A stretch of 58,169 bases of DNA, filler included, from Sluysia triapertura (Eukaryota), in the NCBI GenBank assembly GCA_046118255.1. It is 4 parts of 4 records of this genome, joined end to end, with 100 filler letters (N's around TTAATTAATTAA, not from the genome) between each part and the next. Parts side by side here need not be neighbours in the genome. Positions count along the whole stretch, not along the records: positions 43,206 to 58,169 come from JBJNIA010243214.1; 3 more parts are not named here. One strand, written 5' to 3'. The stretch's first letter is position 1. Each line of letters opens with the position of its first letter. The position numbers and the translations under genes were made by a program. Positions 50,653 to 55,000 of this stretch are shown here, piece after piece. The notes under the pieces were generated by a model, which was not told the DNA's origin, ran no database searches, and was given only the letters and a program-made list of their open reading frames with translations.

Positions 50653-50688
50653 AATTACTTTCCCTTTCGGGAAGATTCGTCCTCGAAT
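50653..50688 (-). promoter_or_regulatory. Polypurine-tract region
   Basis: ttcgaggacgaatcttcccGAAAGGGAAAGtaatt abuts the LTR; same motif at 2477-2509. Confidence 0.75.
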
Positions 50689-50799
50689 AAAAAATTATTA
50701 TTATTATGGATCACATTATTATCAAAATCATTGTTACGTTAGTCTAAAAAAATTCATTATTATGATGGATCACATTATTATTATTGTAACATTATCAAT

Positions 50800-52150
50800 C
50801 TAAGTCCACCGAATCATCGTCCTGAAGGAGATAGTTATACCGGAACAAATAGTGAGAACCACTGTCATTTCGAAATTTCTGTGGAGATAGTAGTTGTAAT
50901 TCTGGATACTTTGTTGATGTCGTCGGTAAAGTAGTGCGTGGTGGATTCTATGATGACGAAGACTTTGATGATGTGTCTATTGATGATTTGGTCAATGATG
51001 GAGCAGATGATGGTGAAGAAGTTAAGGAGGAGATAGAAAAAGAAGTAGAAGGAGAAGATGTAAGTTTCTTCTTTTTTGGAGAGGGAGGAGAGAGCTTAGA
51101 ATTAGAAGTGGGAATGGTGGAAGGTTTTTTAAAGAGAGCGGGTGGAGGGTTATTACAGCGAGAAATGAATTGCAACTCTCGCTCCCTTATGAAATCAAGT
51201 AAGGTTACCAGTTCTGACGCCATCTGCCTGCATGTTAGTACTGGTGAAATTGGAAAAATGAGCCGCAATGTTTGACGAGCTCTACAAAAATATCGTCTGT
51301 CGAAAACAGGACCAAGTTGTGATTTGACAAGTTTATTATCCCACGTAGTAACCTAAAATGTATACTTAGCGTCTCAATGAGAAATTTAGGATTTAATGAG
51401 ACTGGAACTTTGTTCCGAAGGATCCCAATAATCTGAGGGTGGATGTCGTCGATATCCTTAGCCTGTTTAAGGTCGACATCCGTAACTACCTGAATGTTTC
51501 AGCGGAAGTTTTGAATACGGCACCGAGGTTTTATGAGGGCCTCGGTGTTAAATTGACGACTCTAAGGAGTACAGGTCACACAAATCAATTGCGGGTTATT
51601 TAAGAAATCTGTGGCATATTGGAAAGCCACGAACTTAAGTCTATCCTCGTTTTTACGCCGAAAGAAGAGGAACATGCTATATGAGGAGCCGTTTTTCCAT
51701 CGACTTATATTGTCGAGACCTTCAGCAGCAGCAGGAAAGAAGGAGCGAAAAGAGGAGCAGAAGGTAAAACAAAACGAAAAGCAAGATGAGTGGGAAATTC
51801 AAGGGCTTCCACCATAATTTTACAAGTTTTTGATAGATTTGACAGATGGAGGGTTGAGTGATTTTCTACACGTAATAACAAGGGAATCTTTTCAACCTCT
51901 AACGTGACTTTAATCGCCCCGCTCGCAGCTACTATATACATTGTGTCAAATTCGTCGGGCATATTGGTTAACCCTTGTAAAGAAATGAAAGGTATCTCTG
52001 GCGATAAAGCAAAAATGTGGGTTGCCACATTATCATTTAATTCGGACTTTAATTTACAGTCGTGGCAAACGAGTTAGGAAAGAATTTAGGAGTAATATTT
52101 TCGACACAAAATTTGTCGATAGAAGAATAAAAGATTTTGATTTGGTTGAT
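50800..52150 (-). pseudogene. LTR-retroelement accessory ORF, diverged homologue of 1137-2424
   Basis: ORFs 51705-52028 and 50948-51268 plus the intervening EDRLKFVAFQYATDFL...IKPRCRIQNF...AKDIDDIHP...VPVSLNP (with stops). Confidence 0.8.
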
Positions 52151-52319
52151 GGTTCTGGCTCGGAATGTTTTGACTAGATGTGTACTGGATTACAAAGATA
52201 ATTAGAGTTTACATAAAGAGGAAAATTCGTAATAAAAAATTAAAGAAAAATATTAAAAAGTAATTTTTTATGCCGATGTATTTCAATACTATAATAAACG
52301 ATAATAATTAGGAAATATT

Positions 52320-52803
52320 CTAATGTTTTAAAAATGGGTTACTGCATAATCTTGCATGCCTCTTATGAAATTTCTTAAGTTGGCGTCTTCTATAATTACG
52401 CCTTTGTGATTTAGTTAGTCCTGGTGGATAATCAGGTTTTGGTACCTGAAATCCATTATACATGACGGTGACGCCTGGAAAAATTGGAGGTTGATAAATA
52501 TCAACACTCGCATTCTCCTGGAGCCCATTATAAGCTAGAAGAGGAGTTGAGCCAGGTCTAATGTATTTAACGGAGAAATCGTAAGACCTACGAAATGATT
52601 TTTTATAAAAGATATTGCATTCGGTGATTGTGACTCGGCACAAAGGACAAGATGGTAAGGGAGTTCGGGCAGAATCGAACAGAAAATATAGACATCTAAA
52701 ATGGAAACGATGTCTACAAGGCAATGCGATAGCGTAATATCTGTCTATAGTCCTTCGACAAATAGAACATAAGGTGAATCGCAGTGATGATTGTGTGGTT
52801 TTG
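52320..52803 (-). CDS. RING-H2 finger protein (putative E3 ubiquitin ligase) with basic C-terminus; 3' exon
   Basis: Frame extends upstream of the listed ORF: CSIC-x13-CRH-x2-H-x2-C-x14-CPLC; acceptor-like tttttatttttag at 52804; tail KSQRRNYRRRQLKKFHKR. Confidence 0.85.
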
Positions 52804-53310
52804 CTAAAAATAAAAATTATATAATAAGATAATACTTATGAAAAATAGTAAGTAAGATAGATTTAAATTTTACACTTATAAAAATTTATTTTAACTAATT
52901 ATACTAGTAAAACTTATTCTTAGCTAATTAACGTAGATAATTTTACTAAAATATGAGTTTCAAAACTGTCCTGCCCGCAACCGAAAATGGACAGTTAACA
53001 GCCATCACCCATGGTTCGTAAACAGGGAAATGTCATCACTCACATTTTATGCCTTATATAATTTATATTTTAATGATTTTTATGTCTTATAAATAAATGC
53101 AATATGTATAAATGAAGTAACAAAAAGAAAACTTAGTAAAATATAATAACTAAATATAGTGTGATACAAATTTATAGAGGTAGCAGGATGACTTAAACGT
53201 GAGTAATTATAAGATTGTAGACTTATATTCTTACTTAATATATTGGTGTAATTAGTAGTTTTAGCTTTATTTGTAGTTTTTAACGTATTTAAAGTAGTAG
53301 TGATTTTATT

Positions 53311-54036
53311 TTATGTTGGATAATTTACAACATTTGATTTGTCTAAAACAGGTACTACTAGATCACATACTCTATATTTCGGCCAAAGTCCAGGAGTATC
53401 GAGAATCTCGTTGTAACGTAGGATCCAAACCTCAATGAGTGTGAGATTGTGTTCCGGTATAAACAGTAAATGAATACTGGTATTAGGTATTATTAGTGCA
53501 TAATGTTGTTCATTGTCAAAATGTGAGTCAAAACTATTACTAGTAAGATTCTTTTTATTTGATTCGTAACCTATCACTATGCTATGTTTTAGTAAAGGGT
53601 TTGCTATACGAACGAAGTTATTGTTTTCCCTGTATAATGTCATTAAGAACCTAATAGTCGTTGTTAGATGACTAAAAGTGCATGGTTTTGTTCGAATCCT
53701 TTAACTATCTATAGACTTGGCTTTCGAAATTAAATTGGTTATAAATTCTAAACGTAGAGTGACGTTGAATAATTGATTTTCCATCAAACCATCACAAGAG
53801 GCAATCCAGTACATGGTATATTTACTAACATCTAATTCCCGATTACACCATTTAGTTAGACAACAATGCATGGTAATATTAGTAATTGTAACAGTCTCAC
53901 TTCCTATTTTCGCGTATATTGTTCGTTGTAATGCCTTTAGTGTGATTCGTGGTTTTGTTACTATTGGTTTTGCGTGTATGTTAATTATACAAGTCATACA
54001 TATACATGCCAACATGACAGATTGTAAATTAGTCAT
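53311..54036 (-). CDS. Secreted Cys-containing protein; one ~240-codon frame interrupted by a single TAA at 53701-53703
   Basis: Signal-peptide-like MTNLQSVMLACICMTCIINIHA|KP; ORFs 53701-54036 and 53311-53643 are in frame, joined by 19 sense codons (RIRTKPCTFSHLTTTIRFL). Confidence 0.6.
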
Positions 54037-54324
54037 TTACCACCCTCCGTATACTAAAGGTGAATGATTATTTGTTGCATACTCATACACAGGAGGTTGT
54101 CTTACTGGAAATCTTGGTGGTGGTTCATAGTTATTTCTATGTGGAATTGTATAATGATCATCGTCGTCATCGCGACTATATGGCAAACATGGATATCTAC
54201 ACTTATTTGATACAAACATAATTATTACGAGTATAACAATAGATAGTGCAATTACAAATAATATTCCGGCTAGAATTAAAATTAACAATGCTGGGTCATT
54301 TTTTAGCATTTCTGATAGTGACAA
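54037..54324 (-). CDS. Small single-pass membrane protein with a PPxY- and Tyr-motif tail
   Basis: Hydrophobic ALLILILAGILFVIALSIVILVIIMFV, juxtamembrane Cys, DDDDD, YTIP, YEPPP, PPVY; TATAAAA upstream at ~54402-54408. Confidence 0.7.
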   Translation of the reverse strand: MSLSEMLKNDPALLILILAGILFVIALSIVILVIIMFVSNKCRYPCLPYSRDDDDDHYTIPHRNNYEPPPRFPVRQPPVYEYATNNHSPLVYGGW

Positions 54325-55000
54325 ATATTTTTGTGTTCCTTTTAGAACAATATGATTGTTATAGGTTTAGTTTGAAGTGGATAATGCTAGGAAGGACACC
54401 ATTTTATAGGTGCTTATGTATTATTTTTCTATTTGTTTTACATATCTCATAGATGTTAGTTAACTTAGAGGGCAATTTATAATTTTTATTACTAAAGATC
54501 AGATTGAGTGGTATTTTAAAAACATGGATACTTTTGCTGAATTTAATGGATGAATACTTAATTTAAAGTTTAGTATTTGGTCGATATATATAAATTTTAC
54601 TCCGTTTAATTTAATTCCGTTTTACTACAAATTTTGTAATGATTTTTAGAATAACTAAAACAGTAATGTGTATTAAACTTATATTCAAAATTGTTTTCTA
54701 CAATACAATTAGTTTTTATCAAATTGATTAAGATTTTAACAAAAAAATGATTGACTAAAGTTAATATTTTATTACAAATGAAAATACGAACAAATGAAAA
54801 CTTTTGAACAATTCTAAAAACAAGATTAACTGCACCAGGATGACCATAATATCCAATCCGCCACCGTTTCGTGTTCCAACAACTTCCTTGATCAACTAAA
54901 AGATGATTAAATACACAAATTAATTTAAAACTAACAGAATTCGAATGGCATAAAAAGCATGAAAATTATCTATGACAGTAACTCTATATTTCGCCAATAA

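Follow-up and report, generated by a model that had tools for sequence, protein, structure and literature searches.

The question raised by this locus is what kind of element carries the closely spaced genes found at positions 50653-54420 of a 58,169-nt stretch of DNA from Sluysia triapertura (assembly GCA_046118255.1), hereafter called the window, along whose full length all positions are counted. The array lies on the minus strand, ends at a polypurine tract (PPT) and a putative long terminal repeat (LTR), and comprises a transmembrane (TM) open reading frame (ORF) with a PPVY motif, an apparently broken membrane glycoprotein frame, a RING-H2 exon and a large gene called here ORF-X, of which the window contains two copies, A and B. 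A sequence-only reading of the locus had proposed a complex LTR retroelement with several accessory genes. Our best explanation, held with moderate confidence, is that the array is what remains, in decayed form, of the 3′ part of an LTR retroelement present in multiple copies, with accessory genes between a missing pol and the 3′ LTR. An LTR-retroelement origin of ORF-X and the PPT/LTR is highly probable, and it is likely that all four genes belong to the same element.

Both the existence of the array and its repetition in the genome were confirmed, yet two of its four genes were misread by the sequence-only reading. The minus strand of the array contains seven open stretches of at least 85 codons, which cover 66% of it, exceeding what was obtained in 500 local block shuffles (mean of 1.1 open stretches, cover of at most 34%) and bearing out the proposed same-strand, closely spaced arrangement; the plus strand has two such stretches with 19% cover. 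The G+C content is 32–40% in the coding parts vs. 19–23% in the spacers, within a window of around 25% G+C that holds many decayed, nested repeats. The runs of N at 13209, 25511 and 43107, each with the same 12-base spacer mid-run, all fall outside the array.

Repetition was judged from run X1, possibly the source sample, of which 15,963 contigs were placed on 44000-58169. Summed depth, which is not copy number, ranged from 1,812 to 76,351 across all eight array bins, vs. 38–151 in five bins at 44473-46837, where the long contigs have a depth of 8.5–15.8. At variant sites in the TM and glycoprotein ORFs, 20–30 X1 contigs depart from the window (up to 30 at single sites). A diverged contig (record 7, 53924-54172) crosses the TM/glycoprotein junction and others lie over ORF-X and the RING tail; one joint connects 54152 with 53133. 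These data bear on the possibility, named beforehand as one that would refute the retroelement, that the array consists of single-copy host genes beside a solo LTR. RING-H2 and small PY-motif membrane proteins are indeed common host gene types; still, because of the high summed depth, the many variant contigs over every ORF and the paralogous ORF-X with its PPT within the window, this explanation is very improbable, largely refuted and in practice excluded.

The ORF-X copy inside the array (copy B, 50948-52184, minus strand) had been described as an ORF of about 430 codons with no recognized function. We found that it is coding but not open: its approximately 410 codons are interrupted by frame changes near 52050, 51655 and 51270 and by stops at 51707, 51564 and 51501. 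An acceptor-like AG precedes it, its N-terminal half has no assignment, and a DEDDh-like domain (approximately 51651-51155), which had been overlooked, is followed by a Ser/Pro-rich tail. Copy A (1133-2424, plus strand) has an acceptor at 1132, an ATG at 1137 and two frame changes, with a PPT-like motif and TGT behind it, extending to 2512. A stretch of 31 residues at 32421-32513 (minus strand), with 48% identity to the N-terminal half of ORF-X (E-value (E) 0.002), is possibly a third, more decayed copy.

Across 245 aligned codons, copies A and B share 46% protein identity, with codon-position identities of 0.56, 0.74 and 0.29, a proportion of synonymous differences (pS) of 0.88 and a non-synonymous divergence (dN) of 0.48. 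Since synonymous sites are saturated while the protein is conserved, the comparison indicates that ORF-X has been under purifying selection. A two-copy profile searched against 1.84 billion representative proteins gave three matches, two of which were kept as relatives: P0006 (365 aa, unbroken, E 4e-18) and P0008 (176 aa, E 9e-7), both singletons on short contigs. The third, P0007, is a WD40/NACHT protein matched through a short repeat and was dropped; L001, a bacterial locus with one short peptide in common, and L014, a phage-like contig, were likewise set aside as chance matches. No homologue of copy A was detected among longer proteins, a homologue search with alignment A7 returned P0006 itself only, P0006 had no relatives in viral contigs or prokaryote genomes, and the search of phage records gave a single match at E 2.

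Several routes relate the C-terminal part of ORF-X to DnaQ/DEDDh-like exonucleases, with concordant profile similarity across the ExoI–ExoII core. Searched against the PDB with a limit of E 10, the profile of four ORF-X rows matched only 2p1j, a PolC-type polymerase chain (E 0.0015) that also ranked first for the two window copies alone (E 0.06). In NCBIfam, all six matches of the copy B domain are DEDD-containing families (best E 0.0037), and P0006 and P0008 weakly matched one such family each. Aligned by hhalign with twelve DnaQ/ExoX proteins, eight of them hand-picked from 30 phage rows, ORF-X reached a probability of 80.8 over 83 columns and a score of 38.8, vs. 11.8 ± 2.1 (maximum 22.4) in 100 column shuffles and 12.4 for the reversed control. 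A profile built from the twelve exonucleases alone, run against the six-frame window, placed copy B first, at E 8e-4, with copy A in fifth place at E 0.45; when the test was reversed, two of the twelve exonucleases scored above all 240 shuffles. Atlas leads for P0006 were arenavirus NP and RNase_T (0.75–0.76). Structure models of ORF-X had a mean predicted local distance difference test (pLDDT) score of 41 and 35, and three fold searches yielded nothing clear.

Four points weigh against this assignment: every DEDD score is weak singly and lies under the curated cut-offs, the five routes draw on overlapping query sequences, copy A alone matched no family in NCBIfam and other family searches, and its first lead was patatin (Atlas 0.85). 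The patatin lead was rejected, being without Pfam or PDB support while several routes lead to DEDD. In the ORF-X family, the complete catalytic set (four acids plus the histidine of ExoIII) was not found. The D-x-E of ExoI is replaced by Q-x-A, S-x-A and Q-x-A, so that D and E are missing in all three sequences covering ExoI, and the ExoII D is replaced by L or I in four of four; these positions, and that of a likely retained ExoIII Glu, were placed by eye, since the automatic hhalign alignment shifts ExoI and ExoII. The acidic losses are a family trait rather than decay, because the unbroken P0006 has them too. On these sequence comparisons, ORF-X is very probably a DEDD-fold pseudo-nuclease.

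The same comparisons bear on a more sceptical explanation, in which the locus is a non-autonomous derivative or a junk mosaic, its ORFs are now irrelevant, and the DEDD similarity is an ancestral residue without a regulatory role. ORF-X is broken in both of its window copies, as is the glycoprotein frame, and pol is not attached. Yet decay of the window copy fits our best explanation too, the saturated synonymous sites beside a conserved protein speak for constraint, and the unbroken 365-aa P0006, which lacks the same acidic residues, implies selection on a non-catalytic form. We regard this explanation as improbable.

The connection of ORF-X with an LTR retroelement is provided by its 3′ flank. 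In both copies, TGT comes after a 16-base motif, a pair of short predicted hairpins and a purine tract; the conserved PPT-like motif occupies 50653-50684 (minus strand) behind copy B, directly ahead of TGT, and 2479-2509 behind copy A, with TGT at 2510. The purine tract/TG junctions lie at 50668-50652 and 2495-2512, respectively, and the junction pattern occurs twice in the window vs. 0.12 expected. The proposed PPT before the LTR was thus confirmed, its purine tract adjoining TGT at 50652 and the arrangement recurring at 2479-2512. A hammerhead-like reading of the motif ahead of the PPT was rejected by eye, as the upstream core is missing. The start of the putative 3′ LTR (49667-50652, minus strand) at 50652 is supported, while its far end and its 986-bp length are putative: at least 15 CA dinucleotides lie in 49400-49720, and neither a second full LTR copy nor a duplication of the target site was detected anywhere in the window. 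Positions 49524-49560 belong to a unit of around 48 bases repeated elsewhere (X1 joints), which may mark the outer LTR edge or a neighboring repeat.

In the putative LTR, a palindromic AACACCTTAA..AGGGTT motif occurs three times within a conserved promoter-like block (50021-49642). An LTR-like block upstream of copy A (109-474, plus strand) is 72% identical to this promoter-like block over 387 columns. Lying on the downstream side of ORF-X in copy B and on the upstream side in copy A, the block can be read as a terminal repeat, and neither copy shows it on both sides of ORF-X. After 474, no clear tRNA-complementary primer-binding site was seen by eye in copy A. Between the block and ORF-X, positions 645-690 (plus strand) encode a very short peptide, MKKDELISKL, reminiscent of gag N-terminal helical motifs.

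In a second copy too, ORF-X is thus accompanied by the LTR-like block and the PPT/TG junction, a part of the original proposal that holds; what was not found is an attached gag-pol or, at any other locus, a TM, glycoprotein or RING gene together with the LTR. Several observations count against a single element. The 3′ promoter block expected after the TGT of copy A is absent, and no TM, glycoprotein or RING gene lies between the LTR-like block of copy A and its ORF-X. Among the X1 contigs and joints listed, no link between RING and ORF-X, RING and LTR, or ORF-X and LTR was found in another copy. Neither gag nor pol adjoins the array, whose upstream neighbor is an unrelated 302-aa cassette gene. 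Copy A is an internally deleted or simpler relative, to judge from its sequence, or else a juxtaposition.

The main rival to a single element is a chimeric locus, in which ORF-X, the PPT and the LTR come from an LTR element while the TM, glycoprotein and RING genes come from an abutting repeated element, e.g., an endogenised fragment of a DNA virus or a cargo DNA transposon. Copy A, with ORF-X but without the other three genes, is what such a locus predicts; in other copies, among the X1 rows listed, links were seen only among the TM, the glycoprotein and the pre-RING spacer, and nested repeats abound in the window. On the other side, the array keeps a single strand throughout, only around 135 bases separate the RING stop from the ORF-X acceptor, with no terminus or repeat boundary found there, RING and ORF-X have X1 summed depths of similar order, and the cassette block of the neighboring cargo ORFs is missing from the TM, glycoprotein and RING genes. 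We consider a chimera unlikely, though a serious contender.

The cassette block also addresses the suggestion that the array is the interior of a cargo element, "C". The 302-aa, 108-aa, 189-aa and 38874 ORFs share a common upstream block of several hundred bases (60–66% identical, E down to 3e-41), which is missing ahead of TM, RING and ORF-X. As this block was not found in the array, the cargo-interior reading is disfavored. An AATAAA at 54773 follows the 302-aa gene, and the array most likely starts at 54400-54770, a stretch in which the element either is truncated or has been interrupted by cargo-type cassettes. A joint between 49067 and 56291 was not accepted as an empty site, the sequence there being AT-rich and of low complexity.

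Turning back to the array genes, the TM ORF with PPVY is present as proposed (54037-54309, minus strand; 90 aa). It begins with MLKNDP, at an ATG at 54309, approximately seven residues ahead of a single-pass TM segment (around residues 8–31; hydropathy 3.4 over 19 residues), which is directly followed by two juxtamembrane cysteines, and carries an acidic patch and PPVY. Through this motif, the TM ORF can tentatively be regarded as a candidate adaptor of NEDD4-family ligases. The motif PPxY[ED]x[AVLI], chosen afterwards from examples of WW ligands, appeared in 0.3% of tail shuffles (a post-hoc test).

The RING-H2 domain proposed for the next gene is well supported, while its status as a self-contained gene is not. 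The exon (52320-52803, minus strand) has the C3H2C3 ligand pattern with RING spacing and matches Pfam zf-RING_2 (PF13639; E 4e-8, 33.8 bits vs. a cut-off of 27.3), and 39 PDB sequences, RING-type with few exceptions, matched with E no higher than 0.1, among them RNF38, RNF24, ZNRF3 and RNF13 chains. It has no start codon: its first Met (residue 125) lies downstream of the RING, so that an upstream exon is needed. A polypyrimidine-AG acceptor (phase 2) precedes it, and a Pro-rich middle leads to an Arg/Lys-rich C-terminus (11 of 25 residues K or R), whose Rev-like Pfam match (E 0.02) is a lead only. No relatives were found among viral contigs. Judged by its domain, the exon is a candidate RING-H2 E3 ligase.

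The missing exon may be the TM ORF. Among 11 donor-like sites upstream of the RING, the one at 54040 (54035-54040, minus strand), which overlaps the last codon and stop of the TM ORF, is in phase 2 and matches the RING acceptor. A splice from 54041 to 52803 would yield a 250-aa TM-PY-RING protein with the TM ORF as exon 1, the glycoprotein being nested in the 1,237-base intron; we give this prediction an even chance. It is weakened by the donor, which is non-optimal, was picked post hoc from the 11 and has part of its match forced by the stop–ATG overlap, and by the PPxY itself, which arises by chance in 18% of shuffles of the Pro/Tyr-rich TM-ORF tail. A glycoprotein-to-RING splice (the PA-TM-RING layout) was ruled out, no donor-like site in phase being present at 53900-53043. 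RNF11, RNF24/RNF122 and PA-TM-RING proteins are membrane or PY-motif RING-H2 ligases, and UL56 and LMP2A are viral NEDD4 adaptors; the predicted TM, PPxY and RING-H2 layout resembles these proteins, with sequence similarity confined to the RING and the fusion being a prediction. The ubiquitin theme proposed for the whole array is thus retained in part: it gains from the possible in-phase TM-to-RING splice and loses the largest gene, which is exonuclease-like and not ubiquitin-related.

Another possibility keeps the complex LTR retroelement but takes the TM ORF as a standalone sORF2/FAST-like fusogen, joins the RING to another upstream exon and leaves the ubiquitin theme to the RING alone. Three screening criteria for sORF2, as given in 10.1101/2025.03.14.642691, agree with the TM ORF, which has 90 aa (60–210 required), one TM and three K/R (at least three required) in the 15 residues after it; of the 22 lepidopteran consensus sequences in that preprint, 7 are reported to have sORF2 downstream of pol. 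Yet the TM ORF has no MGxxxS/T myristoylation motif, its ectodomain comprises approximately seven residues vs. the required 10–50 aa, and the extended PPxY form and the in-phase donor exactly at its end point away from a fusogen, which we find rather unlikely.

The stop of the TM ORF directly adjoins the ATG of the next gene. What had been described as a secreted Cys protein is the first third (111 codons) of a 318-codon frame (53080-54036, minus strand) broken by in-frame stops at 53703-53701 and 53313-53311; the other two frames contain 35 and 33 stops over the same length. The 76 open codons after the second stop were matched by 3 of 5,000 shuffles. Because it combines an N-terminal, signal-like hydrophobic segment, eight sequons, a Thr-rich stalk (37% Ser/Thr) and a C-terminal hydrophobic segment (53148-53089; hydropathy 2.0), the gene is read as a type I membrane glycoprotein, now broken. 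Of the six cysteines of its first ORF, three lie inside the signal-like segment. By hydropathy and sequons only, the layout is that of an errantivirus-type env, a class I fusion protein (signal peptide, glycosylated ectodomain, C-terminal TM). No furin-like RxxR was found anywhere in this decayed frame, and its first 241 codons had no family match through which to relate it to F or gB fusogens, and no relative in homologue searches. Among the X1 contigs listed, four depart from the window around the second stop, and since they differ there, the broken state of the window is not common to all copies at this point.

The functions discussed here are all our inference from the observed anatomy. 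The accessory genes would be expressed from spliced RNAs of one transcript unit, the unspliced RNA giving the short TM-PY protein and then the glycoprotein, and the RNA spliced from 54041 to 52803 giving the membrane-anchored PPxY and RING-H2 protein of 250 aa. The latter could act on host membrane proteins as a ubiquitin ligase, or bring in a ligase of the NEDD4 type, so that particles are released or host surface or defence proteins are cleared, while the glycoprotein might serve as the surface protein of the element in attachment or cell-to-cell passage. ORF-X may bind RNA ends without cutting, like the host pseudo-nucleases Maelstrom and EXD1, and most likely would thereby protect the RNA of the element from small-RNA silencing or decay; on this analogy, an anti-silencing role is a tentative proposal. 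The complete picture of a retrovirus-like LTR-element lineage in an AT-rich, probably invertebrate host, with its own cassette (an alternatively spliced, membrane-anchored PY-RING ligase, an intron-nested non-F/non-gB glycoprotein and a DEDDh pseudo-nuclease countering small-RNA silencing) is more speculative still and should be regarded as doubtful.

The array is at most a candidate Ty3/gypsy element. Elsewhere in the window, we noted a decayed Ty3/gypsy-type pol at 25880-28900 (plus strand; integrase zinc domain PF17921, E 2e-9) and a second, related gypsy-type pol fragment at 17284-17916 (minus strand), and no link of either to the array was found in the window. Decayed gag-like frames were seen by eye at 40690-41700 (plus strand), with no Pfam match, and a short remnant at 8270-8350 (plus strand) bears WPPQSPDLNPI, a motif typical of Tc1/mariner transposases. 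One-gene cassettes with unrelated orphan ORFs occupy 55001-55909, 57195-57521, 33811-34380, 38874 onward and possibly 10682 onward; their upstream blocks carry CCAAT/ATTGG motifs and AAT repeats, and the family probably corresponds to cargo element C. No cassette ORF had a family match above cut-off. The 302-aa ORF has an internal duplication of 108 bases, and broken orphan frames at 10682-12004 (plus strand) weakly matched the C-terminal part of a kinase (PF00069, E 0.005). At 46068-46390 (plus strand), a small, apparently single-copy gene combines a signal-like N-terminus with a KR site and a short stretch resembling an intron, and looks like a host gene for a peptide precursor. Together with the spliceosomal-type signals and the gypsy-type integrase remnants, this ORF suggests a eukaryotic and probably invertebrate host.

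Every ingredient of the array has a precedent in known elements, and the four-gene combination appears to be new. The Juno/Vesta LTR retrotransposons of bdelloids encode a non-env ORF3, a DEDDy-type exonuclease whose invariant residues are reported to be intact; like the array, they combine a DEDD-family ORF with small TM ORFs, located downstream of pol and there typically expressed by splicing (PMC5408684). In contrast, ORF-X is DnaQ/DEDDh-like, lacks the ExoI/ExoII acids and is the last of four genes rather than a single ORF3; it was set apart from the DEDDy type by description. The giant gypsy Burro elements of planarians carry RING and other ubiquitin- or apoptosis-related domains, mostly in a gag-pol polyprotein of around 4,900 aa (PMC6431247). 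Compared by description only, the array resembles them in having a RING, an env-like region and accessory ORFs in an LTR element, and differs in that its genes are short separate ORFs right before the PPT. With MDG1-group sORF2/FAST-like proteins (10.1101/2025.03.14.642691), the TM ORF shares its short single-pass form and the basic residues after the TM, but it lacks the myristoylation motif, has a very short ectodomain, a PPxY and an acidic tail, and is followed by a separate glycoprotein gene.

As an inactive DEDD derivative, ORF-X can be likened to Maelstrom and EXD1, host proteins that keep RNA binding (PMC5408684), a likeness in concept and not by sequence. The CERV protein of C. elegans Cer1, a spliced accessory protein of a gypsy-class element, has a pseudo-enzyme domain and controls the RNA of its element; this dead domain is G-protein-like, unlike the DEDD-like domain of ORF-X, and here too the likeness is not by sequence (PMC10309623). 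Passages on errantivirus env (PMC13524379) make no mention of exonuclease, RING or accessory genes, and no publication on the gene combination of the array was found in the open full-text literature searched.

The extra 3′ ORFs of LTR retrotransposons have so far mostly been single env-like or enzyme genes. If our reading is true, a cassette of a ligase, a glycoprotein and a dead nuclease maintained by selection would place a retrotransposon lineage at the level of organization of complex retroviruses. ORF-X would then be a concrete candidate for a transposon-encoded anti-silencing factor, with P0006 as its unbroken natural relative.

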